Part shown: one piece after another, positions 13,960-58,211 of the stretch
Position numbering within the stretch: the first letter of the stretch is position 1
Layout: each line of letters begins with the position of its first letter
NCBI GenBank assembly: GCA_963745835.1
Contig: CAVUZH010000003.1
Location: forward strand, 160,001-224,000
DNA length: 64,000 nt
Source of the DNA: an uncultured delta proteobacterium
Lineage (GTDB): Bacteria > Desulfobacterota > Binatia > UBA9968
Reading direction: 5' to 3'
Program-made: the position numbers and the translations under genes
The notes under the pieces: generated by a model
What the model saw: only the letters and a program-made list of their open reading frames with translations
Told to the model about the DNA's origin: nothing
Database searches by the model: none

Positions 13960-13988
13960 GTAGTGGATGACCCGAAAGGTAGAAATGT

Positions 13989-21446: not shown

Positions 21447-21493
21447 ATCATATCGAATGCTCGCCAATTTTCGGTGTAAGGAGAAAAGACCGT

Positions 21494-22111: not shown

Positions 22112-22159
22112 ATAAAACTCCGATAAACTGGCCTTTGACCACCTCGAGGAGAACCCGAT

Positions 22160-22660: not shown

Positions 22661-22694
22661 AGCTTCGAGCCATGATCAGTGAAAGAGCAGAGAC

Positions 22695-23654: not shown

Positions 23655-23711
23655 ACGTTATGCTCTCAGGGCTCGCCGCATTACACGAGGTTAGGCCGAG
23701 GATCAAGATTC

Positions 23712-24455: not shown

Positions 24456-25213
24456 CTCCGACAGACAGCCGGGTCACTATTATCACCGGCGCGGGCAGTG
24501 GCATCGGCAAAGCAACCGCATTGAGGTTGGCACATGCTGGGTGCATCATTTGCGCCTGTGACATCAATGAAGAGGGGCTCAGGGAAACAGCGAGAGCGAT
24601 CCAATCGAGCGGGCGTAGGTGTTTTACTGGCCTGATTGATGTTCGCGACCGCGAGTCTGTCGAAAGCTGGTGTTCAGAAGTTGCCGATAGGTTTACAAAA
24701 ATTGATTGCCTTTTCAGCAATGCTGGACTGAATGCACGGTCAGCTTTTGATGAGATGACTCTCGCGCAATGGAATCTAGTTATAGATACTCACGTTACCG
24801 GAGCATTTAATTTCTGTCAGTCCGTTTTACGTCACATGGTCGAGCGCGGGAGTGGCGCGATCGTTATAACATCTTCCGATTTCGCCGTAGTCGGTGTCCC
24901 TAATGCAGCGAATTATTGCGCGGCCAAGACGGCGCTCTATTCGCTAACAAAATCTCTCGCGCTCGAATTCGCACCCTATGGAATTCGAGTAAACGCGATT
25001 GGTCCGGGTCCCATCGATACACCGTTGCTTCGCTCCGGCCGCACACAGGAACAGTATGAAAGCGCTCGTCGTAATTTTGAGAGCCGGCTGCCGATCAAGC
25101 GCCTCGGGCAGCCGGAAGAAGTTGCTGCCGTCGTTGAATTTCTGCTGAGTTCTGGCGCCGCCTACATCACCGGGCAACTTGTTCAGCCGAACGGCGGTCA
25201 AGTTATCTGGTAA
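24449..25213 (+). CDS. SDR family oxidoreductase
   Basis: TGAGSGIG, NAG and YCAAK motifs; overlaps the upstream stop. Confidence 0.92.
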   Translation: MVTPTDSRVTIITGAGSGIGKATALRLAHAGCIICACDINEEGLRETARAIQSSGRRCFTGLIDVRDRESVESWCSEVADRFTKIDCLFSNAGLNARSAFDEMTLAQWNLVIDTHVTGAFNFCQSVLRHMVERGSGAIVITSSDFAVVGVPNAANYCAAKTALYSLTKSLALEFAPYGIRVNAIGPGPIDTPLLRSGRTQEQYESARRNFESRLPIKRLGQPEEVAAVVEFLLSSGAAYITGQLVQPNGGQVIW

Positions 25214-25314: not shown

Positions 25315-26160
25315 ATGATGTCATATCCTTACGACGATGGGCGATTGATACTGGCGTTACAGATCGATCATTCCCGGGTTGCGGGATATCTCGCCGCGCA
25401 CTGGGGTAACAAAGAATTTGCCAAGCCTGAACCTTACGCGTCCGTGGTTCTAGCGGCGCAGGAACACGATACCGGTTGGTGGGAATGGGAAATGTGCCCA
25501 TCGACTCTCAATGACAAGGGTTATCCGCTTGATTATCACGATGGGAGCCTTAAATATCTGGGGCAGCTTCGGCTCGACTTTTATAAGAATGCGGTAGACC
25601 GCGTCCGGCAACGCGATAGTTATGCAGCTATGTTAATGGCGATGCATGGCGTCGCGCTCATGAACGGCGGCTATGGCAAATACGCTTATCCTCCTGACCG
25701 TACCTCGGACCCGCGGGTGAAGGCCTACGTCGAACACCAGGAAGAACTGCGGCTCAAGTTGCTCGATGATCTGCGCAAATCGGATCAGTTCAAGGCTTTC
25801 AGCTCTGAGGATCAGGTGTGGACGAATTACGAATACATGGAGGTGTTCGACCAGCTGGCGCAATTCCTATGTAATCGTTATCCGTTGACCAGTGATGCGC
25901 GCAAGCTTGGGCCGACTAAAACGCTAAATGATGTGGACGTACCGGTAAGACCGGGCACGAGGCCGGTAAAAGTAAGTCTCGATACCATTGCTGCTAATCG
26001 CGCACTTGTTAAACCGTATCCTTTCGACCTCGATCCTTTAAGTGTTTCTTTTTCGGCGCGGCTGATACCGAATCGCGCTTATAAGAATCCGGATGATTTT
26101 CTTGAGGAATTTTACCGCGCAGAGCGTCTTACGATCACGCACACCTTAGCGTCCGCATAA
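25315..26160 (+). CDS. DUF3891 family protein (HD-like metal motif), copy 1
   Basis: QxDH, AAHWGN, HDxGWW, xxH, D(Q/R)L and PYPFD motifs shared with 33558 and 38210. Confidence 0.8.
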   Translation: MMSYPYDDGRLILALQIDHSRVAGYLAAHWGNKEFAKPEPYASVVLAAQEHDTGWWEWEMCPSTLNDKGYPLDYHDGSLKYLGQLRLDFYKNAVDRVRQRDSYAAMLMAMHGVALMNGGYGKYAYPPDRTSDPRVKAYVEHQEELRLKLLDDLRKSDQFKAFSSEDQVWTNYEYMEVFDQLAQFLCNRYPLTSDARKLGPTKTLNDVDVPVRPGTRPVKVSLDTIAANRALVKPYPFDLDPLSVSFSARLIPNRAYKNPDDFLEEFYRAERLTITHTLASA

Positions 26161-26188
26161 TTGCTTCTCTATCCGTACAGAGACAACT

Positions 26189-27049
26189 ATGAAGCCAGCT
26201 TCATTCGACTATTATTCTCCGGAATCACTAACCGACGCTTTACAGCTACTGGAGCGGCACCGCGATGCGGCAAGGCCGCTTGCTGGTGGACAAAGCCTGG
26301 TTCCGATGATGAATTTTCGTTTGGCTCGCCCGGCGCTTTTGATCGATTTGAATAATCTTCGTGAACTGAGTTTCCTCAAGGTTGAAGATGGCAAATTGCG
26401 TATCGGTGCCATGACCAGACAGCGTGCCTTGGAGCGATCCGCAGTGGTGGCCGCGGGTTGGCCACTCTTGCAAGAAGCAGCTCGGCACATTGGCCACATC
26501 CACATCCGTAATCGGGGCACCATAGGGGGAAGTATCGCTCACGCTTATCCGTCCGCGGAACTCCCTCTGGCAATGATGGCGCTGGACGCATCCTTCCTGT
26601 TGCGTAGCATGCAGGGAGAAAGAATTGTTCCCGCCAGGGATTTTTTCGTCGATGTAATGACAACCATCCTGGAGCCGAACGAGCTTTTGGTCGAGATACG
26701 CGTGCCTCAGGCAAAATCGCGAACTGGTTGGGGCTTTCAAGAAGTCAGTAGACGCCACGGAGATTTCGCGTTAGCAGCCGTGGCCAGCGTAATTTCGCTT
26801 CGGGAGGATCGGAGCATAGACAAAGTAAGATTAGTCTTTACCGGTGCAAAACCCCACCTCTCGAAGAAGACAGATTCTCTTATAGGACAAAAGTTCGACC
26901 GGACAATGTTTTCGGATATCGCCGCTACAGCCGCGGCGGAACTCGATACGGAATCCGATATTCACGCAAGCTCTGAATATAGACGGGAAGTAAGTCAGGT
27001 GCTGGCGCGCCGCGTTTTGGAAGAGGCAGCAGCTCGGGCTGCAATTTAA
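26189..27049 (+). CDS. Mo-hydroxylase FAD-binding (medium, CoxM-like) subunit
   Basis: MKPASFDY, AGGQSL, IRNRGTIGGS and RRHGDFA motifs. Confidence 0.93.
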   Translation: MKPASFDYYSPESLTDALQLLERHRDAARPLAGGQSLVPMMNFRLARPALLIDLNNLRELSFLKVEDGKLRIGAMTRQRALERSAVVAAGWPLLQEAARHIGHIHIRNRGTIGGSIAHAYPSAELPLAMMALDASFLLRSMQGERIVPARDFFVDVMTTILEPNELLVEIRVPQAKSRTGWGFQEVSRRHGDFALAAVASVISLREDRSIDKVRLVFTGAKPHLSKKTDSLIGQKFDRTMFSDIAATAAAELDTESDIHASSEYRREVSQVLARRVLEEAAARAAI

Positions 27050-27085
27050 ATGTAACACCTGGAATGGAAGCGGAAGAGAAGCAAA

Positions 27086-27577
27086 ATGAGCAAGCGTGAA
27101 ATCAACGTTACAATCAACGGCCGTCAGTACCGAGGCGATGTGGAGCCTCGAAGACTTCTGACTGATTTCCTACGGGACGATCTTGGTCTTACGGGTACCC
27201 ATGTCGGCTGCGAACACGGCGTTTGCGGCGCATGCACTGTTCTTTTGGATAATCAACCAGTGCGCGCCTGTCTGATGTTCGCGGTGCAAGTAAACGGCGC
27301 CGAATTGAAGACAATCGAGGGGTTGGCTCCCACTCCGACCGCGCTCCATCCGCTGCAGGAAAAATTTTGGGAGCTTCACGGCCTGCAGTGCGGTTTTTGC
27401 ACTCCGGGAATTTTGCTGACCGCGGTAGCGCTCCTAGAAGAGATCCCTAACCCCAGTGAAGACGACATCCGAGAATGGATCAGCGGAAACTTGTGTCGCT
27501 GCACCGGTTACTACAACATCATCAAATCCATTCAGGAAGCAGCGAAGACCTTAAATACGAGCAAGTCAAATTTATAG
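27086..27577 (+). CDS. Mo-hydroxylase (2Fe-2S) small (CoxS-like) subunit
   Basis: GCEHGVCGAC, QCGFC and CRCTGY motifs. Confidence 0.95.
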   Translation: MSKREINVTINGRQYRGDVEPRRLLTDFLRDDLGLTGTHVGCEHGVCGACTVLLDNQPVRACLMFAVQVNGAELKTIEGLAPTPTALHPLQEKFWELHGLQCGFCTPGILLTAVALLEEIPNPSEDDIREWISGNLCRCTGYYNIIKSIQEAAKTLNTSKSNL

Positions 27578-27682
27578 CTGCGCTTTTCTGTTCCCTTTCC
27601 GTTTCAAGTTAGACGAATAACACTGGTACTTCGATCTAATGCCGATTTCCAAGGGCATTCCGAGTTAAGAGAGTTACAACTT

Positions 27683-29989
27683 GTGGCTTACATTGGTTCA
27701 AGAGTTAAACGTAAGGAAGATTTAAGGCTGCTTCGCGGCGTCGGTAAATACGTTGCCGATGTTCATCGTGTAGGCATGACGCATGCGACAATTCTCCGCA
27801 GCGCGTACGCGCATGCGCGGATTGTCAAAATAGATGCGGCTGCTGCCCTGAAGTGGCCTGGAGTCGTCGGTGTGCTTACCGCAAGCGACATAGCCGGAGT
27901 GAAAAGCATTCCGATGCGAACTGGCATAATTCCAGGAATGGAGCGCTCGCAGCAATTTCCCATAGCAGCAACCAAAGTGCGTTATGTGGGGGATCCGATA
28001 GCCGTCGTGGTGGCGGAAAATCGTTACATCGCCGAAGATGCCATGGAGCTTATCGACGTGGAGTACGAGGCGTTGCCTGCGGTGACCGATGCCCGGAGCA
28101 GCATGCAGGCAGAAGCACCGCGACTTCATGAGGCCGTGCCAAACAACATCCCGGCGAATTTCCAGGTCGATGTCGGCGATGTCGATAGCGCGTTCGCTAA
28201 GTGTGACCTCATCATCGAAGAGGAATTTTCGATCCAACGACATGCGGCTGTGCCGTTGGAAACGCGCGGCTTAGTAGCGGAGTTCGACGAAGGCCGCAGA
28301 ATCCTCACCATGTGGGGACCGACTAAAATGACGCACGCCAACTGGCGTATTCTCTCCGATCTCATCGGCCTGCCGCAGAGCTGTATCCATTTTATCGAGC
28401 CGGAAGTGGGCGGCGGCTTCGGTGCCCGGGGTGAATTCTATCCCGAAGACTTTCTGATCCCGTTCGCCGCCATGCATTTCCGAAGGCCGGTCTGTTGGAT
28501 CGAGGACCGCTCGGAAAATCTAAAAACGATGAATCAGTCGCGGCAGCAGAACCATCGGGTCAAGATCGGCGTCAAAAGCGACGGCACCATCATGGCCATG
28601 GATGCCGAGATTCTCTTCGATATGGGCGGGTACACCAGAACCCATGGCGGTACTCCGGCCATTGCCGCGTCTGCGATGCTGCGCGGTCCTTTCCGTATCA
28701 AAAACTTTCGCGCCAACGTTTTTTGCGTGCTGACCAACAAGACTCCGGTCGGCACCTACCGCAGTCCTGGACGCTATGAAGCGAACTTCGTACGAGAACG
28801 GCTGTTAGATATGGTTGCACGCCGACTCCACATGGACCCAGCGGATGTCCGACGACGTAACTTCATTAAGCACGATGAAATGCCTTATGACCACGGCCGG
28901 CATCCCTACCACAATATACGTTACGACAGCGGCGATTTTTCACTTCAGTTTGAACGTGCTCTGGAGCACATCGGTTATGAAAAGCTGCAGGACCGCTGCG
29001 CAGATGCTAAAAAAGGAGGCGGTGCCATCGGCATCGGCATCGGCTGTTTCGTCGAGACCAGCGGGAGGGGACCTTGGGAGTATGCTCGTGTCGAAGTGGA
29101 CAATGCCGGCAAGGTTGTTTTGTATTCGGGCTGCAATTCACTTGGTCAAGGAATCGCGACAGCCTTGAGCCAAATCGTCGCGGATGAACTGCAGGTTGCG
29201 ATTGAGGATGTACGGGTGATCCACGGTGACACCGCAAAGGTTCCGTACGGAAACGGTAGTAATGCTAGCCGTTCGATCGTGATGGCTGGCAGCGCTGCGG
29301 TGGGAGCGTCGCGTAAGGTTAAGGACAAGCTTTTGCGCCTGGCATCTATGGCGCTGGAAATCGACATCGGTGATCTTATTCTCCAAGATGCGCACGTTGT
29401 GGCACGCGGCGCGCCAGATCGATCTCTAAGCTTTGCCGCTATTGCGCGCTTGGCGTTGCCTGGTCCCGCTATGAAAAGCGGTATAACCCCGGGAATTTCT
29501 GAGGAGGATTTCTTCGCCACGGATCAGCGTCCATTTCCGTACGGTGTGCATGTCGCGGTGGTCGAAGTAGATCGTGAGACCGGAGAAATAAAGATTCTCG
29601 ACTATTTAGTAACCGAAGATGTCGGAAGAAAAATTAATCCCATGATTGTTGAGGGGCAAATGGCCGGTGGATTAGCACAGGGAATCGGCGGCGCTTTGTT
29701 GGAGGAGTTTGTCTACGCTGAAGATGGTCAGCCCTTAGCGACCAGTTTCATGGACTATTTGATGCCGACGGCGATGGAAATGCCCAAAGCGCAGCTGATC
29801 TCGACTGAAGATTTCCCTTCACCGCTCAACCCCCTGGGCGCCAAAGGCGCAGGCGAAGGAGGAATCACTGCGGTTGGCGCGGCCTTGGCTAATGCAGTTT
29901 CGAACGCTCTTGGTGTTGAGGTAACCAAGCTGCCCCTCAAACCGGACTACCTGTTGAATCTGATCAAAATTGCTAACGCCCATTCATAA
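27683..29989 (+). CDS. Mo-hydroxylase large (CoxL-like) subunit, copy A
   Basis: VGGGFGARG, active-site loop TYRSPGR and KGAGEGG motifs. Confidence 0.93.
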   Translation: MAYIGSRVKRKEDLRLLRGVGKYVADVHRVGMTHATILRSAYAHARIVKIDAAAALKWPGVVGVLTASDIAGVKSIPMRTGIIPGMERSQQFPIAATKVRYVGDPIAVVVAENRYIAEDAMELIDVEYEALPAVTDARSSMQAEAPRLHEAVPNNIPANFQVDVGDVDSAFAKCDLIIEEEFSIQRHAAVPLETRGLVAEFDEGRRILTMWGPTKMTHANWRILSDLIGLPQSCIHFIEPEVGGGFGARGEFYPEDFLIPFAAMHFRRPVCWIEDRSENLKTMNQSRQQNHRVKIGVKSDGTIMAMDAEILFDMGGYTRTHGGTPAIAASAMLRGPFRIKNFRANVFCVLTNKTPVGTYRSPGRYEANFVRERLLDMVARRLHMDPADVRRRNFIKHDEMPYDHGRHPYHNIRYDSGDFSLQFERALEHIGYEKLQDRCADAKKGGGAIGIGIGCFVETSGRGPWEYARVEVDNAGKVVLYSGCNSLGQGIATALSQIVADELQVAIEDVRVIHGDTAKVPYGNGSNASRSIVMAGSAAVGASRKVKDKLLRLASMALEIDIGDLILQDAHVVARGAPDRSLSFAAIARLALPGPAMKSGITPGISEEDFFATDQRPFPYGVHVAVVEVDRETGEIKILDYLVTEDVGRKINPMIVEGQMAGGLAQGIGGALLEEFVYAEDGQPLATSFMDYLMPTAMEMPKAQLISTEDFPSPLNPLGAKGAGEGGITAVGAALANAVSNALGVEVTKLPLKPDYLLNLIKIANAHS

Positions 29990-30220
29990 GCTCGATTACA
30001 AATCGATCCTCGAAGCGCTGATTGTTATAGGCTAGAACTAAAACCTTCACATGATGCATCGACAGTATAACCTTCATCGCGCTCAAAGATCATTGTGTAA
30101 CTATCCGGGTCACTGGCCGAATAAAACGCGAACTGGCAATCAAGTTCAGTTTTGTTCCTGACCTGACCCAACGATGAACGTTGCGAATAGCTCATAAGAG
30201 AAAGGTTTAGGAGGTAGGGT

Positions 30221-31330
30221 ATGGCTGTCTTGGATTATGTAAGAGTAAATCGAAAATTAACTCACATATGTTGTCGCTCGATAGTGATTCTATTGCTGCT
30301 ACTGCCGTATATTCAGCTAAGCAATGTACGAGCACAGGGCTTCAACGAGAAGGCAGTCGCAGACTTCTACAAAGGGAAAACGGTAACGCTTACCGTCGGT
30401 TTCGATCCGGGCGGAGGCTATGACATAGCCGCGCGCATCGTTGCCAAGCACCTCGGAAAACATATTCCCGGCAATCCTAATATAATTGTCTCGAACCGAC
30501 CGGGCGGAGGTAGCCTGGTAGCGGCAAATCTCGTCTACACGACATTGGCCCAAGACGGCACACAAGTTGTCGATTTCCACCCGCAGATGTTGCTTCAGCA
30601 AGCGCAGGGCCGCGAAGGTATTAAGTTCGACGGCTTGAAATACCATTGGCTCGCAAGCCTCAACGCCGGTAGCACCTCTTGCGCCGTGCATGTCGAGACC
30701 GGGATTAATCATCTCGATCAGATTAAAGGTGCCGCTGGAAAAGTAGTGACGATGGGTGTGGAGGCTCCGGGATCCGGTATTACTGATGGCACAGCAGTAA
30801 TCAGGGCGGCATTAGGTCTAAAATTCCGCATGATTTACGGATACAACGGGCAGCGTCCAATTGTGAATGCCGTCTTGAGTCGGGAGGTAGATGGAATCTG
30901 CTCCAGTTGGGATTCTTTCACTGCGACATTGAAAAATCTGTTTGAGCCGAAACAGTTAGTCCGCATGCTCGTGATTAACGAGCCTGAGGTTCCGAAGCAC
31001 CCGTGGCTCAAAGATGCTGTTGCCGCCCAGGCTGCCGCGCCGGACGACACGACGCGCAGGTTGCTCCGGGTCGTGGATGGACCTAGGGCAATTTCCTACC
31101 CATTTGCCGTCGGCCCTAAAGTTCCGAGAGATCGCGTTTTAGCATTACAGGAAGGGTTTGAGAAAGTGTTGAAGGATCAAACATTCATATCCGATTACGA
31201 AAAAACCGGACGAAGCTATGAACCAAAGAATTGGAAAGAAGTGACGGAAGTCGTGAATGATCTTCTGACAATGGATGACAAGACCAAGAAAGCTCTGGAG
31301 GAAGCCCTAAAGCGAAAGGAAGCGCCTTAA
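30221..31330 (+). CDS. tctC: Tripartite tricarboxylate transporter substrate-binding protein
   Basis: FYKGKTV...PGGGYD..AR and PGNP motifs; adjacent to tctA/tctB. Confidence 0.85.
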   Translation: MAVLDYVRVNRKLTHICCRSIVILLLLLPYIQLSNVRAQGFNEKAVADFYKGKTVTLTVGFDPGGGYDIAARIVAKHLGKHIPGNPNIIVSNRPGGGSLVAANLVYTTLAQDGTQVVDFHPQMLLQQAQGREGIKFDGLKYHWLASLNAGSTSCAVHVETGINHLDQIKGAAGKVVTMGVEAPGSGITDGTAVIRAALGLKFRMIYGYNGQRPIVNAVLSREVDGICSSWDSFTATLKNLFEPKQLVRMLVINEPEVPKHPWLKDAVAAQAAAPDDTTRRLLRVVDGPRAISYPFAVGPKVPRDRVLALQEGFEKVLKDQTFISDYEKTGRSYEPKNWKEVTEVVNDLLTMDDKTKKALEEALKRKEAP

Positions 31331-31404
31331 GAAGATATCGGGCGCGACACACGGTCTTAGTTGAATGCAACGACACATGGTAAGTTCGATTTACCCCTAA
31401 CCTA

Positions 31405-32901
31405 ATGGCAGAGGCTTTTCTAGCGGGCCTTACCGCTGTCTTTACCTACCCTACATTCCCGTTGTTGCTGATCGGGATCTTGGCCGGGTTTGTAGTCGGT
31501 ATTCTTCCCGGCGTCGGGGGTGTTACCACGCTGGCACTCATGCTCCCTTTCACTTTTGATATGAAGCCGGTTGAGGCATTCGCGTTTCTCCTGGGGATGC
31601 TTGCCGTTACATCGACGACAGGAGATATCACTTCCATACTGTTTGGTATACCCGGGGAGTCTATTTCTGCCGCAACCATCGTCGACGGTCATCCGATGGC
31701 TAAGAATGGCGAAGCTGGGCGTGCCCTAGGCGCGGCGCTGATGAGCAGCTTGGTGGGAGCAATTATCGGAGCAGGAGTATTGGCGATAAGCATCCCGATT
31801 ATCACTCCGATTGTCTTGGCGTTTAAATCACCTGAGTTTTTTGCCCTCGCTTTGGTGGGGGTCACATTTGTCGCTGCTTTAAGTGGCACGAACAAGCTTA
31901 AAGGCATCGTCGTCGCCGGGCTCGGACTGCTACTCTCTGTGGTTGGACTGGATTCGCAAACCGGCGTGCCTCGTTACACGTTAGGGATGGTTGAATTCTG
32001 GGAAGGTTTGAGTTTAGTGCCGGTTACAGTCGGACTCTTTGCCATCCCTGAAGTTGTCGATCTATGGATTAAAGGAACCAGTATTGCGGAAAAGAAAATA
32101 GGCAAGATCGGCGGTGTGATGCAGGGCGTCAAAGATACATTTGTCTATTTGGGTATCACGGTGCGTTGCAGTCTCATTGGCACAATCATAGGAATCATAC
32201 CTGGTTTAGGAACGGGCGTCTCCCAATGGGTGGCTTACGGGCACGCAGTACAAAGCGCGGCGGACAAGAGTAGATTTGGCAACGGAGATGTCCGTGGCGT
32301 GCTCGGACCGGGTGCGGCGAACAACTCGGGGATCGGCGGTTCGCTCATTCCAACGCTGGGTTTTGGCATACCTGGAAGCGTCTCCACGGCTATTTTGCTC
32401 GGGGCGTTCTTGATCCAAGGAATCGTTCCGGGTCCGAGCATGTTGACTGAAAATTTGGGCCTTACTTTTTCATTCGTTTGGATGATTGTCATCTCCAACG
32501 TCATTACGGTTGTGTTGAGTTTCATGTTTCTGAACCAGCTTGTGAAGATCACTTACGTCAAGGGCGCGCTTCTCTTGCCGGCTATCCTGCTACTGGTTTT
32601 CCTTGGATCCTACGCCGACTCCAATTCGATGCTCGACATGTTTATGACGATTGTCTTCGGGCTACTCGGATTGACGATGGTCTATCTGGGGTGGCCGCGA
32701 CCGCCGTTAATTTTGGGTCTGGTTTTGGGCACGCTCATCGAACGAAACTTTCTAATATCGTATGAACTTCATGGCTTGGGTTTGTTTCTCAAACCCATTG
32801 TCGTGGGCACGTTCATTCTCGGCTTTGGCAGTTTGATGTTGTCTTCTTATCGCCGCCGGACGGGGAAATCGGAGAGTGGGCGTGTTTCACAGAGCGCTTG
32901 A
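31405..32901 (+). CDS. tctA: Tripartite tricarboxylate transporter large permease
   Basis: Repeated G.LPG/G.IPG motifs, DGHPMAK.GEAGRAL, many TM helices. Confidence 0.92.
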   Translation: MAEAFLAGLTAVFTYPTFPLLLIGILAGFVVGILPGVGGVTTLALMLPFTFDMKPVEAFAFLLGMLAVTSTTGDITSILFGIPGESISAATIVDGHPMAKNGEAGRALGAALMSSLVGAIIGAGVLAISIPIITPIVLAFKSPEFFALALVGVTFVAALSGTNKLKGIVVAGLGLLLSVVGLDSQTGVPRYTLGMVEFWEGLSLVPVTVGLFAIPEVVDLWIKGTSIAEKKIGKIGGVMQGVKDTFVYLGITVRCSLIGTIIGIIPGLGTGVSQWVAYGHAVQSAADKSRFGNGDVRGVLGPGAANNSGIGGSLIPTLGFGIPGSVSTAILLGAFLIQGIVPGPSMLTENLGLTFSFVWMIVISNVITVVLSFMFLNQLVKITYVKGALLLPAILLLVFLGSYADSNSMLDMFMTIVFGLLGLTMVYLGWPRPPLILGLVLGTLIERNFLISYELHGLGLFLKPIVVGTFILGFGSLMLSSYRRRTGKSESGRVSQSA

Positions 32902-33427
32902 TCTAGTCTTTGCCTGTTTCGTTGCGCTAGTGATTCTCTGGTTCGTTTGGGAGGCTAGGGATTGGTCATTTCACTCACGGCTATTTCCTTGGTCGGTGGG
33001 TATTACTGTTCTGATTCTGGCATTGGCCCAAGTAGCTCTCTCGGTGCGCAACTTTCAGTTTGGTTCATCAAAAGACAATGTTGAGTTGAAGGTGAGAGCT
33101 CAAGATCATCAGGCGGCCGAGGTCGAGCCCTCTGAAGTATGGCGCCTGGTGACCATTGGAGGTTGGATCGCAGTGTTTTTCTTGGGAATTTGGCTGTTCG
33201 GGTTCCGCTTGGGAAGTCTGATTCTTACAATCGCTTTTTTAAAAGTCGCCGCCAAGGAAGGTTATAGAAAATGCTTGATCCTTGGGCTGGTCAATTATCT
33301 TTTTTTCGTGATCATTTTCGACTTCGCATTGGGAGTCCCTCTTCTCGAAGGCGCTATAGCCCAATGGTTAGGAATTGAATCTCTGGACGGTTTTGTTCTA
33401 AAAGAGTTGCGCAACCTATGGACATGA
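32876..33427 (+). CDS. tctB: Tripartite tricarboxylate transporter small permease
   Basis: About 4-5 TM helices, FP and L.VPL motifs; overlaps tctA. Confidence 0.8.
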   Translation: MGVFHRALDLVFACFVALVILWFVWEARDWSFHSRLFPWSVGITVLILALAQVALSVRNFQFGSSKDNVELKVRAQDHQAAEVEPSEVWRLVTIGGWIAVFFLGIWLFGFRLGSLILTIAFLKVAAKEGYRKCLILGLVNYLFFVIIFDFALGVPLLEGAIAQWLGIESLDGFVLKELRNLWT

Positions 33428-33557
33428 ATTTATAGCTTCCCGGGTCGGTGTTAGCCGCCCTGCGACAGGTAATTGACGTATAGGGTCTGCACCCAGGCAT
33501 CACAATGCTCTTGTTCTGAGTTCGGAAAACACGCATTAGAGAAAGGAACAATTCACA

Positions 33558-34397
33558 ATGATTATTGCAGACAATTCTGAATGGTACCGAATGATCACAC
33601 AAAATGACCATGGCGATCTCGCCGGGCAGTTTGCTGCCCATTGGGGAAATCAAAAATTTGCACGCCTAAAGCCCTATGGGTCAATGGTGCTGGCGGCTGA
33701 GGCCCATGACAACGGCTGGTGGGATTGGGACGTATTTCCATCTGTGGATGAACAAGGCGCTCCCATACCTTTTACTCGAACGCCACGAGAATTCAGATCG
33801 ACCTTCTACGGCAAAGGCATCGACAACGTGATCTCTCGAGACCTTTATGCAGGATTGATCGTCAGCATGCACGGCGTGGGTCTCACAAAAAAGCGTTATG
33901 GAACGATGCCGACAATGGTGGAGCGTCAAGACGAATACTCTCAGCAGTTCGTAAAAGACCGCGAACCTGATCACGATCAGATGCTGGCAAAGCTAAAACA
34001 GATGGAACAGTATGTCGGCGCAACGGATCAGGAACAAATATGGTTGAACTATCTGATGATGCAGGTGTTCGATCGGCTGTCACTCTTTTTCTGTTCGAAC
34101 TACGACATTACAGCTGTGCCGGAGACCGGTGCTCACACAGCTGGCAAAGGTTATTATGGCCCTTCGATCAAACCAACCCCGGTGAAATTGGGCGAGGACG
34201 AGGTCGATCTAAAGTTGCGTGTTCTCGATCGCAACAACGTGCTCGTAGAACCCTATCCGTTTGATCAGTCGCCGTTGCGAGTCAGCGTTCGGGGAAAACT
34301 AATTCCGTGTGTCGCCTACCGATGCCAGGAGGAATTCAGAGAGACCTACGCCAAAGCACAGCGGGAGCAGTTTGAGTTCACTCTTAGAGCGGCGTGA
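33558..34397 (+). CDS. DUF3891 family protein (HD-like), copy 2
   Basis: ITQNDH, AAHWGN, HDNGWW, SMH, FDRLSL and PYPFD motifs. Confidence 0.8.
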   Translation: MIIADNSEWYRMITQNDHGDLAGQFAAHWGNQKFARLKPYGSMVLAAEAHDNGWWDWDVFPSVDEQGAPIPFTRTPREFRSTFYGKGIDNVISRDLYAGLIVSMHGVGLTKKRYGTMPTMVERQDEYSQQFVKDREPDHDQMLAKLKQMEQYVGATDQEQIWLNYLMMQVFDRLSLFFCSNYDITAVPETGAHTAGKGYYGPSIKPTPVKLGEDEVDLKLRVLDRNNVLVEPYPFDQSPLRVSVRGKLIPCVAYRCQEEFRETYAKAQREQFEFTLRAA

Positions 34398-34482
34398 TCA
34401 TCATGGACGTTTGCTGATCGCAGCCGCCTATCTCCAGGGGTGCGTTGCAGGCTGATAGCGACTGTCGCTAGGAAAAACAGCG

Positions 34483-36786
34483 ATGCCATATATTGGTTCA
34501 AGAACTAAACGCAAAGAAGACATCAGGCTGCTACGCGGCAGCGGCAAGTATGTTGGCGATATCCAGCGCGTTGGAATGGTTCACGCGACTATCTTGCGGA
34601 GCACTCAGGCGCATGCGCGTATCACAAAAATTGATGCAACCGCCGCCTTTAAGCTGCCCGGTGTTATAGGTGTTCTTACTGCGGCTGATATGCCGGGATT
34701 GAAAACAATTCCGATGCGTACCGGTGTCATTCCAGGCCTGGAACGCTCGCAGCAAACTCCAATCGCGACGGACAAGGTGCGCTACGTTGGCGACCCTGTT
34801 GCAGTGGTGGTTTCGGACAGCCGTTACATTGCCGAGGATGCGCTCGAGCTTATCGACGTTGAATACCAGGCCCTCGGCGTTGTCACGGACGCGCGCCAGA
34901 GCATGCAACCGGGAGCTCCCCAACTGCATGACGCGACGCCAAACAACGTCGCTGCCAACTTTCAGGTAAATGTCGGCGACGCCGACACGGCTTTCGACGG
35001 TTGTGATCTGGTATTTGAAGAAGACTTTTCTACTCAGCGCCACTCCGCAGTGCCTCTGGAAAACCGGGGTTTAGTCGCGGAGTGGGACGAGGGGCGGGGA
35101 CTTCTAACAATGTGGGGGCCGACCAAGATGACCCACACCAACTGGCGTATTCTCTCCGATCTCATCGGCCTGCCGCAGAGCTGTATCCACTTTATCGAGC
35201 CGGAAGTGGGCGGCGGCTTCGGTGCCCGGGGTGAATTCTATCCCGAAGACTTCCTGATCCCGTTCGCCGCCATACATTTCCGAAGGCCGGTCTGCTGGAT
35301 CGAGGACCGTTCGGAAAATCTAAAAACGATGAATCAGTCGCGGCAGCAGAACCATCGGGTCAAGATCGGCGTCAAAAACGATGGCACCATCATGGCCATG
35401 GATGCCGAGATTCTCTTCGATATGGGTGCTTACACCCGCACCCATGGCGGCGTTCCTGCCATTGCCGCGTCTGCGATGCTGCGCGGCCCATTTCGTATCA
35501 AAAACTTTCGCGCTAACGTTTTTTGTGTGCTGACCAACAAAACCCCGGTCGGCACTTACCGCAGTCCTGGACGCTATGAGGCGAATTTCGTGCGTGAGAG
35601 GCTTGCCGATATCATTGCCCACCGATTAAGGTTGGACCCAGCGGACGTAAGGCGGCGCAATCTAATTCGTCGTGAAGAGATGCCCTACGACTTGGGCAAG
35701 CATCCCTTTCACTACATGGTCTACGATACCGGAGATTTTATCGCCCAGTTCGATCTGGCATTAGATCGTTTCGGATACGATAAACTCCAGAAGACCTGCG
35801 CTGCCGCCAAGCAAGAAGGCCGAGCCGTGGGAGTCGGTATAGGCTGCTTCGTCGAAACCAGCGGCATTGGACCGTGGGAGTATGCTCGAGTCGAGATCGA
35901 CAATGGCGGCAAAGTCCTGCTGTACTCCGGTTGCAACTCCGTTGGTCAAGGCATTGCCACGGCGCTCAGCCAGATCGTCGCCGATGAACTGCATTGTTCA
36001 ATCGATGACGTGAGCGTGGTTCACGGCGACACCGCGAAAGTTCCGTACGGCAACGGTAGTAACGCCAGCCGCTCTACCGTCATGGCAGGCAGCGCCGCGG
36101 TCGGCGCCTCGCGCAAAGTGAAAGACAAGCTCTTTCGCTTAGCCTCTTCGAGTCTAGAAATCGACGTAGCCGACCTTATTCTCCGGGACGGTAGAGTGGT
36201 TGCAGTGGGCGCACCGGACCGTTCGCTTGGCTTTGACGACCTCGCGCGCATGGCATTGCCCGGTCCGGCGCTTAGGAATGGAATAACACCTGGTATCTCG
36301 GAAGAAGATTTCTTCGCTACTGACAAAAGACCATTTCCTTACGGCCTGCATATCACAACCGTTGAAGTCGATAAGGAAACCGGCCAGATAAAAATTCTCA
36401 ACTATTTTGTCACTGAAGACGTCGGACGAAAAATCAATCCGATGATCATCGAAGGGCAAATGGCAGGCGGTCTGGCGCAAGGTATCGGCGGAGCAATGTT
36501 GGAGGAATTTGTTTACAGCGAAGATGGTCAGCCTTTGGCAACTAGCTTTATGGATTACCTGTTGCCCACAGCAATGGAAATGCCCAAAGCACAGTTCATC
36601 TCAACAGAAGAATTTCCAAGTCCCCACAATCCGCTGGGCGTGAAAGGGGCCGGCGAAGGCGGCATCACCGCAGCTGGGGCAGCATTAGCGAACGCCGTGT
36701 CGAACGCGTTGGGTGTCGAAGTGAAAAAGTTACCGCTGAAGCCTGACTATGTTTTGGAATTAATCAAGCGAAGTCGTGTAGTATGA
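34483..36786 (+). CDS. Mo-hydroxylase large (CoxL-like) subunit, copy B
   Basis: Close, colinear paralog of 27683 at an offset of 6800 nt; TYRSPGR. Confidence 0.93.
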   Translation: MPYIGSRTKRKEDIRLLRGSGKYVGDIQRVGMVHATILRSTQAHARITKIDATAAFKLPGVIGVLTAADMPGLKTIPMRTGVIPGLERSQQTPIATDKVRYVGDPVAVVVSDSRYIAEDALELIDVEYQALGVVTDARQSMQPGAPQLHDATPNNVAANFQVNVGDADTAFDGCDLVFEEDFSTQRHSAVPLENRGLVAEWDEGRGLLTMWGPTKMTHTNWRILSDLIGLPQSCIHFIEPEVGGGFGARGEFYPEDFLIPFAAIHFRRPVCWIEDRSENLKTMNQSRQQNHRVKIGVKNDGTIMAMDAEILFDMGAYTRTHGGVPAIAASAMLRGPFRIKNFRANVFCVLTNKTPVGTYRSPGRYEANFVRERLADIIAHRLRLDPADVRRRNLIRREEMPYDLGKHPFHYMVYDTGDFIAQFDLALDRFGYDKLQKTCAAAKQEGRAVGVGIGCFVETSGIGPWEYARVEIDNGGKVLLYSGCNSVGQGIATALSQIVADELHCSIDDVSVVHGDTAKVPYGNGSNASRSTVMAGSAAVGASRKVKDKLFRLASSSLEIDVADLILRDGRVVAVGAPDRSLGFDDLARMALPGPALRNGITPGISEEDFFATDKRPFPYGLHITTVEVDKETGQIKILNYFVTEDVGRKINPMIIEGQMAGGLAQGIGGAMLEEFVYSEDGQPLATSFMDYLLPTAMEMPKAQFISTEEFPSPHNPLGVKGAGEGGITAAGAALANAVSNALGVEVKKLPLKPDYVLELIKRSRVV

Positions 36787-36825
36787 CATCAGGTTTTAAA
36801 CATGCGGCAAATTTTTTATGACTAT

Positions 36826-37043
36826 TATCCCTAATCCGACATTATTCGAATCCCGCGAGGCCAGCGAGCCCTACAGCCGTGGGCAATGGGATAGTGCCTT
36901 AAAGGCCGCCCCGCATTCCCCTAAAGGTGATGTTTGGTACGTCGGGGCCTTGGAGCCAACTGCGTGCTCGACTGCCCACGACTTCCAGTCTCGTCATCCT
37001 CGCTCACTCCTGACAACGCTCAACTATTGTCGGATTAGGGTTA
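36826..37043. mobile_element. MITE-like element with terminal inverted repeats and possible TA target duplication
   Basis: CCCTAATCCGACA (36829-36841) and TGTCGGATTAGGG (37028-37040) are a perfect 13-bp IR that extends imperfectly to ~21 bp; TA on both outer flanks. Confidence 0.6.
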
Positions 37044-37099
37044 TGTCTTGGTTCATTTGCCATACATCGTTCTAGCTGCGAGGAAACCGCCCACGGCCT

Positions 37100-38080
37100 A
37101 TGCCGGAAAACGAGTTGAAATCAATGGATATAATTGATGTGCACGCCCATCTTTACCCGGAAGGCAGTTTCACCGAGGTGCTCAAGAACGATAGCGAATT
37201 CGAGCTGGTCGAAAACCCGCGGGGCCAATCGCTGGTCTACCGCGGTAGCCATGTTATGTCGATGCCCGTGGGGCAGGCTGATATAGCGTTGCGTTTGGCA
37301 TCGATGGATGAAGCGGGCATCGGTATGGCCATACTTTCGGTGGGTGCATTGAATATCGGCTGGGCACGCGCGCGCGCAGCGGCTGCGGCGCATATTGTCA
37401 ATGATGGTCTCGCTGCGGTTTGTCGCCAATATCCAGGGCGGTTCCGGTTTGTCGCAGTGTTGCCGTGCGCGAACGAAGCAGAGATGAAAAGCGAGCTCGA
37501 TCGCGCTCAAGATCTGGGCGCTGCGGGTGTCGGTATAGCAACCAACATCGGCGAGTTTCAACTGCAAGCGCCGGAGATCCGCCACTTTTGGCGTGAAATG
37601 AATCGCCGCAAGCTGATGGTGCTGGTGCATCCAACCTGTCCCTGCGACGCGCCGCAGAATGATCCGGGAACGTTTCTCTCGGTAGGCTACCCTGCCGAGA
37701 CCGCCATGGCAGCCACCAAACTGGCGCTGGCTGGTGTGTTGGCCGAGTGCCCTGACGCCAAAATAGTGTGGTCGCACTTAGGCGGTAGTTTGCCGATGAT
37801 TTTGGACCGCATTGATCGTGGCTATCAGCGGTACTCCAGTTGTCCTCATCCCCCTGGATACTACTTGCGTCGTTGTTACTTTGACACTGCATGCGCTCAC
37901 GGTCCTGCGTTTGAATGCGCGCGGGCAACCTGGGGTGGCGGCGCCCTGGTGTTCGGCACCGATGTTCCCCACGTGCCGAATACAGAAAAAGAAACGATTA
38001 GGGCTTTGGAAGCCTGTCAATGGTCGGATACCGAACTGCGAGATATCTATGGTGGCACGGTAAGGAGATTAATGATTTGA
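37100..38080 (+). CDS. Amidohydrolase family protein (ACMSD/non-oxidative decarboxylase-like)
   Basis: DVHAH, VHP, HLGG.LP and FGTD.PH motifs. Confidence 0.9.
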   Translation: MPENELKSMDIIDVHAHLYPEGSFTEVLKNDSEFELVENPRGQSLVYRGSHVMSMPVGQADIALRLASMDEAGIGMAILSVGALNIGWARARAAAAAHIVNDGLAAVCRQYPGRFRFVAVLPCANEAEMKSELDRAQDLGAAGVGIATNIGEFQLQAPEIRHFWREMNRRKLMVLVHPTCPCDAPQNDPGTFLSVGYPAETAMAATKLALAGVLAECPDAKIVWSHLGGSLPMILDRIDRGYQRYSSCPHPPGYYLRRCYFDTACAHGPAFECARATWGGGALVFGTDVPHVPNTEKETIRALEACQWSDTELRDIYGGTVRRLMI

Positions 38081-38209
38081 CGGATTTTTTATCTATAGTT
38101 TGGGAGTTCAGCCGCAATTCCGGTGCTCATCGGAACTCTGTAGGTTATCTTTTTACGAAGGTGGTAAGAGCTCTAACGGTGGCCTTAAACAAGGCGGGGA
38201 GAAGATAAA

Positions 38210-39052
38210 ATGATGGTATGCCCTTTTGATGAGAATCGTCTACTGCTCATTTTGCAAGTCGACCATTCCAAGGTTACCGGTTGGTTCGCCGCCCATTGGG
38301 GCAACGATAACTTTGCGCGGCCAAGCCCGTACGCGGCAATGGTGTTAGCAGCTCAGGAACATGACACTGGTTGGTGGGATTGGGAGATCAAACCGCAGCT
38401 CAACAGCGAAGGTTTACCGCCGGACTATATCGGCAGCATCAAACATCTGGGCGGGAAAGTTTGGCTCGATTTTTATCGCCACGGAATACTGCGCCTCGCC
38501 CAGCAGGATCCCTTCGCTGGTTACATCGTTTCCTTACATGCGGACGGTTTGCTGACACAAGGCCGTGGTCTATTGCCTTATATGCCGGACTACGGGATCT
38601 ATCCGGAGGTGGCAGAATTTCTCAGCGAACAGGAGAGTTATCGCGCCGAGTTGATGAAGCTACTGAAAGCCTCGGCGGAGTACTCTGACTTTGTCTCAGA
38701 TGAGCAGTTATGGACCAACTTCAAACTTATGGAAGTCTACGATCAGATGGGACAGTTTGTCTGTAACCGCTATCCCTTAAACAGCACGATTCGCAAGAAC
38801 GGTCCCAGTAATACAATGAGTAATGTTCCTACTCCGACCAAACCAGGCAGCGCAGACACGATTCTGAACTTCACCATAAAAGATGAAAGCCGGGCCACGG
38901 TCGAGCCTTACCCGTTTGACATGGATCCGCTCCTCGTCTCCTTCCAGGGCCGTCTGATACCCAAACGCTCCTATGGAACACAGGAAGAATTTCTTCAGGA
39001 ATATTATCGCGCTGAGCGGCTCGCGATTAACTACTCGCTATACTCGCGGTAA
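38210..39052 (+). CDS. DUF3891 family protein (HD-like), copy 3
   Basis: LQVDH, AAHWGN, HDTGWW, SLH, YDQM and PYPFD motifs; closest to copy 1. Confidence 0.8.
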   Translation: MMVCPFDENRLLLILQVDHSKVTGWFAAHWGNDNFARPSPYAAMVLAAQEHDTGWWDWEIKPQLNSEGLPPDYIGSIKHLGGKVWLDFYRHGILRLAQQDPFAGYIVSLHADGLLTQGRGLLPYMPDYGIYPEVAEFLSEQESYRAELMKLLKASAEYSDFVSDEQLWTNFKLMEVYDQMGQFVCNRYPLNSTIRKNGPSNTMSNVPTPTKPGSADTILNFTIKDESRATVEPYPFDMDPLLVSFQGRLIPKRSYGTQEEFLQEYYRAERLAINYSLYSR

Positions 39053-39082: not shown

Positions 39083-40129
39083 TTGTTTCGAGCATCCAAT
39101 CCGACAATGCGCACCATCTTTTTTATCGCTGTCGCTCTATGGCCTATTCATTTGCCCGGAGAAAGCTTCGGTCAACCGACACCGACCTACAAGATTAAAC
39201 TGGCTACCTCAACCGCCGGGTTGGATTTCGCGCCGATCTGGATCGCGCAGCGGAAGGGCTATTTCAAAGAAGAAGGAATTGAATTCGAACACATCTTGAC
39301 CACCGGTGGAGCGGTTACCATGGCGGCGCTGATCAACGGCGATGTGCAGTTCGCGTCAACCGCAGCATCGGATGTTCTCGTCGCCCGGTCCAAGGGCGAC
39401 CGGTTGTTAGCCCTAGGTATTTTTCCCGCGTCATTGGAGTGGCACATCGCCACCACCAACAAATTTTTGGAGTCGCGGGGATTAAGCAAGGGCAAGGTCG
39501 AAAAGATGACGGTGCAACAGAAAGTTCAGATGTTGAAGGGAACTACCATTGGCGCCGCAACCGTTGGCGGGGCACCAGCGCAAGTTGTCCGATACATTCT
39601 TCGGCAGAACAATCTAAAACCGGACTCTGACGTGCGGTTTGCTGCTGTAGGAGCTGGCACCGCGCGCGTCGGCGCTCTCCGCCAAGGTCAGGTCGAAATG
39701 ATCGTGGGTGGGATACCCGACACCGAACAGCCGGAGCTTGAAGGCTGGGGAATGACCTACATACGGATCGGGCATGAGATCGATATCTTCAAGGACTATC
39801 CGCACGAGTCGATTCATGCCACCGAAGCTTATCTCAAGAGCAATACTGACTCGACTCGAGCGCTGCTGCGCGCGGTCGTGCGTGGTAACAACCTGATCCT
39901 CGACAACCCCTCAGAATCCGACGAAATCTTGGTAAAGCACTTTCCCAAAATTAGTCCGTCAGTTCTTCGAACCGTTATGGCGCGGAGTCGCGCGACGTTC
40001 CGACGAGATATGAAGATGACCAAGTCCGGATGGGATAATATGCAAAAAGTTTTCGTTTCCGTAGGCCTGCTTAAGAGTGATCTGAATACCACGGAAGGCG
40101 AATTCTGGACGAACAAATACTTACCATAA
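39083..40129 (+). CDS. ABC transporter substrate-binding protein (SsuA/NMT1-like)
   Basis: TTG start after AGGAGG; APIWIAQRKGYFKEEG motif; adjacent to permease/ATPase. Confidence 0.88.
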   Translation: MFRASNPTMRTIFFIAVALWPIHLPGESFGQPTPTYKIKLATSTAGLDFAPIWIAQRKGYFKEEGIEFEHILTTGGAVTMAALINGDVQFASTAASDVLVARSKGDRLLALGIFPASLEWHIATTNKFLESRGLSKGKVEKMTVQQKVQMLKGTTIGAATVGGAPAQVVRYILRQNNLKPDSDVRFAAVGAGTARVGALRQGQVEMIVGGIPDTEQPELEGWGMTYIRIGHEIDIFKDYPHESIHATEAYLKSNTDSTRALLRAVVRGNNLILDNPSESDEILVKHFPKISPSVLRTVMARSRATFRRDMKMTKSGWDNMQKVFVSVGLLKSDLNTTEGEFWTNKYLP

Positions 40130-40165
40130 CGAGCCCGCCACCTGCCGGGATCAATCAGCTAGACC

Positions 40166-41023: not shown

Positions 41024-41088
41024 TCATCTCAAAAAGCCTCTTGTTTGCCGAAGGGACTAGTCTAGCTCCAATGCGGTAATGTATTCAG

Positions 41089-41872: not shown

Positions 41873-42190
41873 ATGTGGTACATCGTACTCTCGCGTTCAA
41901 AGCCTGAAATGGAAGACGATAAGCAAAATCACTATGACGAGCATCGTCTCTGGCTCGAGGAACAGCATAAAAACGGCAGGTTGTTGTTTTCAGGCCCGAC
42001 CACCGATGGAGCCTATGGCATCTACATTATGCTCGCGGCAAGTCTTGACGAAGCTCGATCGATCGCGGCCCAAGACTCCCACCACCGTCGCGGAATCCGC
42101 ACTATGGAAGTGCTCGAATGGGATCCGCGCCGGGCATTCCGTATGAAGCATACTATTGCGGACGTTGAAAAAATGGCGCGAGGCGAGTAG
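41873..42190 (+). CDS. YciI family protein
   Basis: EH..WL....G.LL.SGP and A.SL.EA...A.QD.H patterns. Confidence 0.75.
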   Translation: MWYIVLSRSKPEMEDDKQNHYDEHRLWLEEQHKNGRLLFSGPTTDGAYGIYIMLAASLDEARSIAAQDSHHRRGIRTMEVLEWDPRRAFRMKHTIADVEKMARGE

Positions 42191-58210: not shown

Positions 58211-58211
58211 A

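Follow-up and report, generated by a model that had tools for sequence, protein, structure and literature searches.

Three DUF3891 paralogs among molybdenum hydroxylase genes of an uncultured Binatia bacterium: a lead for enzyme discovery

The DUF3891 family (PF13030) is catalogued but uncharacterised. Three of its members, here called D1, D2 and D3, are interleaved with duplicated molybdenum (Mo) hydroxylase genes in a stretch of 64,000 nucleotides from an uncultured delta proteobacterium (GTDB lineage Desulfobacterota, Binatia, UBA9968; assembly GCA_963745835.1, contig CAVUZH010000003.1, positions 160,001 to 224,000 of the forward strand); this whole stretch is referred to as the window. The residues conserved throughout the family, its predicted helical fold and its recurrent catabolic neighbours point to a candidate metalloenzyme, and the DUF3891 island is regarded here as a lead for enzyme discovery, not as a demonstrated new system.

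The catabolic island and its DUF3891 genes

On the + strand, about 0.3 to 44.8 kb of the window form a single long catabolic island, after which a type VI secretion cluster follows. The genes at and around the three paralogs are:

19279..25213, + strand: upstream catabolic genes, namely an Amidohydro_2 gene (19279), NMT1 binding proteins, a split thiamine pyrophosphate (TPP) decarboxylase and two SDRs
25315..26160, + strand: DUF3891 paralog D1, 281 amino acids (PF13030, E 8.7e-42)
26189..27049, + strand: Mo-hydroxylase flavin adenine dinucleotide (FAD) subunit, M (FAD_binding_5 and CO_deh_flav_C)
27086..27577, + strand: Mo-hydroxylase 2Fe-2S subunit, S (Fer2_2 and Fer2)
27683..29989, + strand: Mo-hydroxylase large subunit L1, GTYRSPGR type (Ald_Xan_dh_C, MoCoBD_1, MoCoBD_2)
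30221..31330, + strand: TctC-like binding protein, 369 amino acids, without a Pfam match, 34% identical (E 3e-55) to a weak-TctC open reading frame (ORF) at 10122
31405..32901, + strand: TctA of a tripartite carboxylate transporter (Pfam)
32876..33427, + strand: TctB of a tripartite carboxylate transporter (Pfam)
33558..34397, + strand: DUF3891 paralog D2, 279 amino acids (PF13030, E 8.8e-49)
34483..36786, + strand: Mo-hydroxylase large subunit L2, without M or S of its own, 81% identical to L1
37100..38080, + strand: Amidohydro_2 enzyme (PF04909), ACMSD/IDCase/gamma-resorcylate-decarboxylase-like
38210..39052, + strand: DUF3891 paralog D3, 280 amino acids (PF13030, E 8.5e-39)
39083..41859, + strand: NMT1-type binding protein, ATP-binding cassette (ABC) permease and ABC ATPase (Pfam)
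41873..42190, + strand: YCII-domain protein (Pfam and NCBIfam scans)
42400..43815, + strand: UbiD-family decarboxylase (Pfam and NCBIfam scans)

The three DUF3891 genes all share one strand, and each lies 29-131 bp from catabolic genes. D1, whose true start may be 25318 (a family-conserved Met is found at residue 2), ends 29 bp before the start of the M gene, D2 ends 86 bp before L2, and D3 is placed between the Amidohydro_2 gene and the genes of the NMT1-type binding protein and ABC transporter. An earlier note on the window, made from the sequence alone, had described this placement in the same way and had named three divergent DUF3891 paralogs. The profile search bears this out: the three proteins reach 134-167 bits to PF13030, with a gathering cut-off of 24, and run nearly end to end along the profile (from positions 1-2 or 8 to 218-219 of 219), which makes them full-length members of the family. 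Pairwise identities are 36% for D1 and D2, 47-49% for D1 and D3 and 35% for D2 and D3.

The large subunits L1 and L2 share 619 of 762 positions and both carry the GTYRSPGR motif. With a hammerhead domain, two molybdenum cofactor (MoCo)-binding domains and separate FAD and 2Fe-2S subunits, they belong to the xanthine dehydrogenase family. The best PDB relative of L1 is 6-hydroxypseudooxynicotine dehydrogenase (7dqx, E 1.2e-166), followed by a CoxL and quinoline 2-oxidoreductase, and its scores remain below every NCBIfam equivalog cut-off. L1 is thus a hydroxylase whose closest solved relatives include two hydroxylases of N-heteroaromatic rings. Whereas L1 and L2 are 81% identical, D1 and D2 share only 36%, which indicates that the large-subunit duplication is recent and the DUF3891 paralogs are ancient; the interleaved arrangement therefore did not arise by duplication of a joint module of DUF3891 and large subunit. 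The arrangement seen with the orphan L2, two large subunits with one M and one S around DUF3891, recurs in a lineage (L014/L015) whose large subunits are only 63-65% identical, which suggests alternative catalytic subunits that use one common electron-transfer module.

As the earlier note had stated, no gene for XdhC, CoxF or CoxG is visible in the window: none had a Pfam match among the 53 window ORFs scanned, and tblastn of two CoxG proteins from related loci against the window returned nothing at E ≤ 1. Between 1 and 45.4 kb the window has no unannotated gap above 642 bp. A third Mo-hydroxylase set lies at 3960-9014 in the order M-L-S and is followed by a UbiD decarboxylase. Its M subunit is short (241 amino acids, without the CO_deh_flav_C domain), and its large subunit is nearest to 4-hydroxybenzoyl-CoA reductase alpha, far under the cut-off (581 versus 995 bits).

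Conserved residues and predicted fold

D1, D2 and D3 have in common the motifs Q16-x-D18-H19, H29WGN, H51-D52-x-G-W-W and PYPFD, as well as H111 and D179. The conservation of these residues was followed in a family alignment of 101 sequences, which consisted of the three window proteins and 98 of 150 listed representatives of 250-300 amino acids. At a mean column identity of 27%, the near-invariant positions are Q16 (98%), H19 (98%), W30 (99%), G31 (98%), H51 (99%), D52 (99%), W55 (95%), Y103 (95%), H111 (98%), D179 (98%), P234 (100%), P236 (99%) and F237 (93%), a degree of conservation in the motif residues that is far from chance at this overall divergence. The signature QxDH...HDxGWW...H...D, which the earlier note had read from the three copies, is present in all of them, and its H...HD...H...D part holds at 98-99% across the family. 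Its D18, however, is conserved in just 72% of the sequences (a further 16% have Glu), and H29 falls below the 60% listing threshold, so neither residue is part of the conserved core. This core therefore consists of H...HD...H...D plus an aromatic set. The most conserved residues outside the ligand set are aromatic (W30, W55, Y103, Y172 and F237), and no Arg or Lys is conserved above 78%, which is a mild argument against a phosphate-ester substrate.

The family is sizeable. With a profile of D1, D2 and D3, clustering at 50% identity gave 2,356 clusters matched at E ≤ 1e-3, of which 1,185 reached E ≤ 1e-10 and 152 E ≤ 1e-30, and a search with D2 found 391 relatives at E ≤ 1e-3, with PF13030 in all 120 listed. 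Among the relatives listed, the names are only 'DUF3891 family protein' or 'hypothetical'. PF13030 is the sole Pfam match in the three proteins, and no NCBIfam model matches them. In agreement with the earlier note, which knew of no function for the family, a literature search for 'DUF3891' found no publication in the library that was searchable, and one for 'PF13030' gave only Plasmodium gene identifiers, as judged by titles. Sequence and profile searches of the PDB returned chance-level matches only (E 0.67 for BcmD, 0.48 for a TENA/THI-4 protein and 0.96 for a protein that is uncharacterised), and the ESM Atlas, queried with the full-length protein and with the helical domain, held no usable match outside PF13030. 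Among six longer representatives, no second significant domain was found (one weak EamA match, E 0.0049, lies below its cut-off). A search for longer proteins with the 101-sequence alignment gave none among 8,000 candidates, which is weak evidence.

The AlphaFold2 model of D1, built from the same alignment, is confident, with a predicted local distance difference test score (pLDDT) of 95.2 and a predicted template modelling score (pTM) of 0.93. It comprises an N-terminal beta hairpin, eight helices within residues 16-186 and a C-terminal beta domain at 203-280. In this model, H19 lies on the first helix, H51-D52 where helices two and three meet, and H111 and D179 also within the helical region; every conserved residue is found on a helix or at a helix end. 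The helical domain modelled alone (residues 15-192) reached a pLDDT of 95.0.

When the full D1 model was compared with the PDB by Foldseek, the top two matches were PhnZ (E 0.12-0.13, probability 0.75-0.80, target-normalised TM score 0.37-0.39), and TmpB ranked tenth, with a probability of 0.44-0.60 across searches. With the helical domain as query, four PhnZ entries lead (probability 0.63-0.85, best TM scores 0.42/0.41, root-mean-square deviation 6.9 Å), followed by the PgpH HD domain (0.33-0.47), TmpB (0.44) and the phage HD phosphohydrolase DatZ (0.28). Nuclear-receptor ligand-binding domains are interleaved with the HD matches in this list, which we read as all-helical noise. BFVD lists a phage 'HD domain-containing protein' first (E 0.15, probability 0.35), and three further HD-type entries stand in the top 50, none of them significant. 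HD enzymes thus come first among the weak structural matches from either library. A lead to the heme-oxygenase-like fold of TenA was dropped, as neither Foldseek search of the PDB placed a TenA structure among its first 50 matches. Likewise, a helix-1/HD regular expression was dropped as an argument; it matched 101 of 120 YfbR relatives versus 8 of 270 proteins from the DUF3891 search.

The ligand order of DUF3891 can be set beside those of known HD proteins. Mononuclear HD phosphohydrolases have the motif H...HD...D, the diiron oxygenases MIOX, PhnZ and TmpB have the six ligands H...HD...H...H...D, and the Zn enzyme cyanamide hydratase Ddi2, an HD-type protein outside phosphohydrolysis, has H...HD only, as described in PMC8177086. 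DUF3891 has the order of the HD superfamily in H19, H51, D52 and D179, with H111 in addition. The six-ligand diiron motif is absent, since between HD and D179 only H111 is found and no second His reaches 60%. With YfbR-type HD phosphohydrolases, DUF3891 shares the order H...HD...D, and the sole stretch aligned by hhalign pairs H51-D52 with YfbR H68-D69. It differs from them in the spacing from HD to the last Asp (127 residues versus 68) and in a conserved pocket that is predicted to be aromatic rather than basic. The earlier note had proposed an HD-type metalloenzyme. This is borne out in part: its ligand order stands, and the confident model has HD enzymes, above all PhnZ and TmpB, as best matches, but these matches are not significant, the profile comparisons are negative and the six-ligand motif is absent. 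The HD fold of DUF3891 is plausible but unproven, and an HD-like origin is more probable than not, at best as a very remote branch.

DUF3891 neighbourhoods in other genomes

A scan of species-representative genomes with two conserved peptides gave 151 pattern matches and 102 confirmed relatives, the best 80 of which were kept and make up 78 loci (given here as L numbers). Their ORFs were labelled by BLASTP against the annotated proteins of the window, which yielded 91 DUF3891 ORFs. Pfam labels of neighbours cover 28 loci with 245 ORFs; 33 had been chosen, and five were dropped after their DUF3891 ORF was lost in overlap filtering. In what follows, adjacent means within 400 bp, and distant copies are those with less than 50% identity to any window paralog. 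Most relatives are labelled 'Candidatus Binatia', and the D3 clade is the largest among the fetched loci, with 36 members at 60% identity or more.

Of the 91 DUF3891 ORFs, 34 have a Mo-hydroxylase large subunit within 5 kb, and seven have one directly adjacent. By group, it is found within this distance of 9 of 11 D2-like, 15 of 25 D1-like, 10 of 41 D3-like and none of 14 distant copies, a few of the absences reflecting short contigs (L002, L003, L032 and L037). Large subunits of the GTYR[SAG]PGR type (at least 63% identity to L1 or L2) lie within 5 kb of DUF3891 in 18 of 20 cases, and other types in 12 of 20. This proximity is kept through at least six gene orders: D1-M-S-L, D1-SDR-SDR-M-S-L, L-D1-L-M-S, L-cupin-D1-CoxG-SDR, M-S-L-TPP-TPP-D2 and Tct-D2-L. 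A quick maximum-likelihood tree was built with 90 rows, 35 of which bear the label 'large subunit within 5 kb'; this pattern calls for no fewer than 17 changes, and well-supported branches force 11 of these.

Plasmids offer a further view. A tblastn search with D2 against annotated plasmids gave nine records, and six contexts were opened, of which one from Azospirillum carried no annotation. In the five annotated contexts (four haloarchaeal megaplasmids and one Peribacillus plasmid), no Mo hydroxylase was seen; plasmid neighbours of DUF3891 include cupin, amidohydrolase, isochorismatase-family, IclR and MOSC genes. The link between DUF3891 and Mo hydroxylases is real, and it is confined to the clades of D1 and D2 and to a portion of the D3 clade. 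The association elsewhere that the earlier note had anticipated therefore holds in these clades, but not among the distant copies or in the five annotated plasmid contexts. In L011 (10913-11401) and L056 (1573-2058), the gene directly downstream of DUF3891 belongs to the CoxG family (SRPBCC).

The commonest adjacent partner is Amidohydro_2, which lies within 5 kb of 41 of the 91 DUF3891 ORFs and adjacent to 17 of them, five of the 14 distant copies included. Other adjacent neighbours are NMT1 (14), YCII (13), SDR (9) and UbiD (5). YCII is directly adjacent to 13 of the 41 D3-like copies, and UbiD lies within 5 kb of 10 of the 91. For the window's Amidohydro_2 enzyme at 37100, the best PDB match is ACMSD (E 5.7e-24), followed by uracil-5-carboxylate decarboxylase, and gamma-resorcylate decarboxylase is also near; the copy at 19279, 25% identical to it, and a SAR202 copy are nearest to other subfamilies (8sm6/8sm7 and PtmU3). 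The pair of Amidohydro_2 and DUF3891 recurs in Dehalococcoidia and SAR202. At L075:6719-12140, in a SAR202 metagenome-assembled genome (MAG), this pair is tandemly duplicated and followed by a GFO/IDH/MocA oxidoreductase, and the unduplicated trio is found in the Dehalococcoidia loci L072 and L076. In the Binatia chromosomes of L018, L026, L039 and L022, XcyI-type restriction-modification or toxin-antitoxin modules stand immediately upstream of the D3-like gene and part it from Amidohydro_2 genes 5-7 kb off.

Closer to the window, its DNA is about 95% identical to two overlapping stretches of one MAG contig (L001 and L035, labelled 'uncultured delta proteobacterium'). The D1 orthologue in L001 has 98% protein identity, which at this DNA identity indicates genes under purifying selection. 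The gene set upstream of D1 (19279-25213) also flanks D1-like copies in L001-L003, L008, L023 and L052. Within this set, the split TPP-dependent decarboxylase (21494-22660) has its beta part (21494) before its alpha part (22160) and resembles sulfopyruvate and phosphonopyruvate decarboxylases, below cut-offs; similar pairs flank DUF3891 in L005, L006, L055, L058 and L059.

The remainder of the island is rich in binding proteins. Between 9242 and 44777 there are seven NMT1/THI5-like solute-binding-protein paralogs (9242, 14546, 17999, 20499, 22695, 39083 and 43812), only one of which adjoins an ABC permease and ATPase, and the window also encodes two TctC-like proteins which are too diverged for Pfam. 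Two paralogs of the Amdase/Asp-Glu-racemase family, which includes maleate isomerases, lie at 12970-14705, and a gamma-glutamyltranspeptidase lies at 16158-17723; together these would fit late steps of pyridine-ring catabolism. The type VI secretion cluster (45420-60266) encodes a PpkA-like Ser/Thr kinase together with a PP2C phosphatase, and also a 1129-residue protein in which an FHA domain is joined to an IcmF-related N-terminal domain. After hcp, a 1.7-kb stretch (60267-62000) has no ORF of 120 amino acids or more and no Rfam or tRNA match. A promoter and terminator scan of 19-39 kb gave fewer sites than shuffled sequence and is uninformative. The Rfam and tRNA scans returned no match, so that a cofactor link of the genes through a MoCo or TPP riboswitch is absent.

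Candidate roles of DUF3891

With moderate confidence, we regard D1, D2 and D3 as ancient paralogs that act as soluble catabolic metalloenzymes, one per branch of a (hetero)aromatic carboxylate pathway. Each would combine an all-helical catalytic domain (about residues 15-190) with a small beta domain, which the model builds from the N-terminal hairpin and residues of about 200-281. A divalent metal (Fe, Zn or Mn) may be held by H19, H51, D52 and D179 in the manner of mononuclear H...HD...D sites, with H111 as a possible fifth ligand, second-site ligand or catalytic residue, and a pocket formed by the conserved aromatics would bind an aromatic substrate, not a phosphate ester. In the pathway, (hetero)aromatic carboxylates would be imported through the Tct and NMT1/ABC systems, hydroxylated next to the ring nitrogen by Kdh-/Qor-like Mo hydroxylases with two alternative large subunits, and decarboxylated by the ACMSD-like Amidohydro_2, UbiD and split TPP enzymes. 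DUF3891 would catalyse a cleavage, hydrolytic or O2-dependent, of a hydroxylated or decarboxylated intermediate. Metal binding, substrate class and reaction type are what we infer here, next to the family membership, residue conservation, architecture and conserved gene order that were observed or predicted. No cupin, VOC, LigB or intradiol dioxygenase is found among the 53 window ORFs scanned, nor does any gene in 1-45 kb of the window code for a recognised ring-cleavage dioxygenase, which leaves the ring-opening step without an assigned enzyme here. A common pathway in this lineage is the best-supported reading of the linkage between DUF3891 and Mo hydroxylases.

Several observations weigh against this proposal. 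All loci were chosen through DUF3891, so that the counts are ascertainment-biased and stand without a genome background. Among 38 loci with full 10-kb flanks, large-subunit genes per successive 2.5-kb bin number 9, 3, 3 and 7; such counts, without clear decay over distance, fit islands rich in large subunits as well as specific pairing. On the tree, the label 'large subunit within 5 kb' is missing from the 14-row outgroup and from all 16 rows of a D3-like subclade, and the only scanned members of this subclade (L018, L026 and L039) lie beside restriction-modification, toxin-antitoxin or YCII genes. Neighbourhoods of DUF3891 are heterogeneous among loci, and the copy on the Peribacillus plasmid lacks catabolic neighbours. 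DUF3891 need not be the ring-cleaving step, as L011, L055, L041, L074 and two haloarchaeal plasmids have cupin, VOC or LigB genes close to it. The structural side is affected as well: three Foldseek searches (PDB full-length, PDB helical domain and BFVD) gave no match at E ≤ 0.001, with a best TM score of 0.42, and the Pfam HD family (PF01966) was matched by one of the 101 members, at E 0.013 and no better than many unrelated families. A PDB profile search with DUF3891 returned no HD protein, and hhalign gave probabilities of 0.25% against E. coli YfbR and 0.4%, not significant, against the YfbR family in local and global mode (E 0.15-0.24 over these comparisons), with a template alignment of 30 sequences (29 of 120 listed homologues) that is shallow, at an effective number of sequences of 1.6. 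Sequence or profile similarity to the HD superfamily is accordingly lacking in these comparisons.

The earlier note had left two options, a new enzyme acting on the hydroxylated products or a maturation factor for this clade of Mo enzymes. In the second case, DUF3891 would substitute for XdhC or CoxF as an assembly factor, for example by inserting or processing molybdopterin cytosine dinucleotide. That three Mo-hydroxylase sets occur in a window without XdhC, CoxF or CoxG, that D1 stands directly before M-S-L and D2 directly before the orphan L2, immediately upstream of structural genes as XdhC, CoxF and CoxG are, and that the GTYR[SAG]PGR-type large subunits are so often close to DUF3891 (18 of 20) would agree with this, as would the CoxG genes beside DUF3891 in L011 and L056. 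However, DUF3891 has no homology to these accessory proteins and shows neither the XdhC_CoxI domain nor the constant Mo-hydroxylase linkage of XdhC/CoxI-type proteins (large subunit within 5 kb in 34 of 91). No large subunit is near any of the 14 distant copies, the 16 members of the main D3-like subclade or the copies in the five annotated plasmid contexts, and the large-subunit label changes at least 17 times on the tree. D3 is paired with a decarboxylase and a transporter and not with a large subunit, D1 and D2 are much older than the pair L1 and L2, and XdhC could be encoded elsewhere in the genome. The many copies without a nearby Mo enzyme disfavour a maturation factor, which we consider highly unlikely; of the note's two options, a new enzyme that acts within the same pathway is the better one.

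A conventional HD-type phosphohydrolase, whose substrate would be a phosphate ester related to a nucleotide or cofactor and whose place in these islands would serve housekeeping or the supply of cofactors, is an unlikely identity for DUF3891. H...HD...D is the mononuclear phosphohydrolase motif in the account of PMC8177086, PgpH, DatZ and phage 5'-nucleotidases are among the weak Foldseek matches, and UbiD, which needs a prenyl-phosphate-derived cofactor, lies within 5 kb of 10 of the 91 copies. Yet 100 of the 101 members match no HD Pfam family, the conserved non-ligand residues are aromatic with no Arg or Lys above 78%, the nearest structural matches are oxygenases and not phosphatases, and the linkage to catabolic operons is consistent across phyla. 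A non-catalytic protein that binds a small molecule or metal, for example as a sensor or carrier, or as a subunit within the adjoining Amidohydro_2 enzyme, is very improbable. Amidohydro_2 stands next to DUF3891 more often than any other gene does (17 of 91), other phyla included, and the extra beta domain with its invariant P-x-P-F could be an interaction surface, but the adjacent Amidohydro_2 proteins come from different subfamilies (ACMSD-like versus 8sm6- or PtmU3-like) and D1 and D2 have none adjacent. Moreover, the family has no DNA-binding or signalling domain, and fused forms were not found, which again is weak evidence.

For the catabolic metalloenzyme itself, known HD systems offer partial models. 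The diiron oxygenases PhnZ, TmpB and MIOX resemble DUF3891 in their all-helical domain and in the His/Asp order H...HD...H...D, and PhnZ and TmpB are its best, non-significant structural matches. They work directly after a hydroxylase in a two-enzyme cascade, as is proposed for DUF3891 (accounts in PMC8177086 and PMC12186529). In contrast, they have six ligands where DUF3891 keeps one His between HD and D, they show no sequence or profile similarity to DUF3891, which adds a C-terminal beta domain, and their context is phosphonate or inositol metabolism instead of (hetero)aromatic carboxylate catabolism. According to PMC12186529, the atypical HD-type oxygenase SmaX (DUF6817) uses a single Fe and cleaves a C-C bond following a separate hydroxylase; oxygenase chemistry in DUF3891 is therefore compatible with a reduced ligand set. 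SmaX is likened here by description only: the reduced ligand set and the hydroxylase-then-cleavage logic, proposed for Mo hydroxylase and DUF3891, are alike, but Pfam family, peptide substrate and the biosynthesis of RiPPs (peptides made by the ribosome and modified after translation) as context differ (PMC12186529). Ddi2 shows an HD scaffold with a mononuclear metal doing non-phosphate, non-redox C-N chemistry, and it is described without the terminal Asp, which DUF3891 retains as D179 in 98% of sequences (PMC8177086). A bolder version of the proposal, which we hold to be doubtful, would make DUF3891 a highly diverged branch of HD-type iron oxygenases with reduced ligands (H, HD, H, D) and an extra beta domain, at work in a 'hydroxylate, then cleave' cascade. 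A Mo hydroxylase, and not a 2-oxoglutarate/Fe enzyme, would add a hydroxyl group from water, DUF3891 would open or trim the N-heteroaromatic ring with O2, and three paralogs with two large subunits would give several substrate branches.

DUF3891 is a sizeable family without an assigned function, and its members are found in soil, groundwater and marine bacteria as well as in haloarchaea. Pathways that combine Mo hydroxylases with non-oxidative decarboxylases are abundant in uncultured Binatia-like bacteria. If DUF3891 indeed serves (hetero)aromatic breakdown as a metalloenzyme, it would account for a step without an assigned enzyme in these pathways and would enlarge the small set of HD-type enzymes that act beyond phosphate-ester hydrolysis. 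With three paralogs, each with a different set of neighbours, the window provides a compact test bed for this family.

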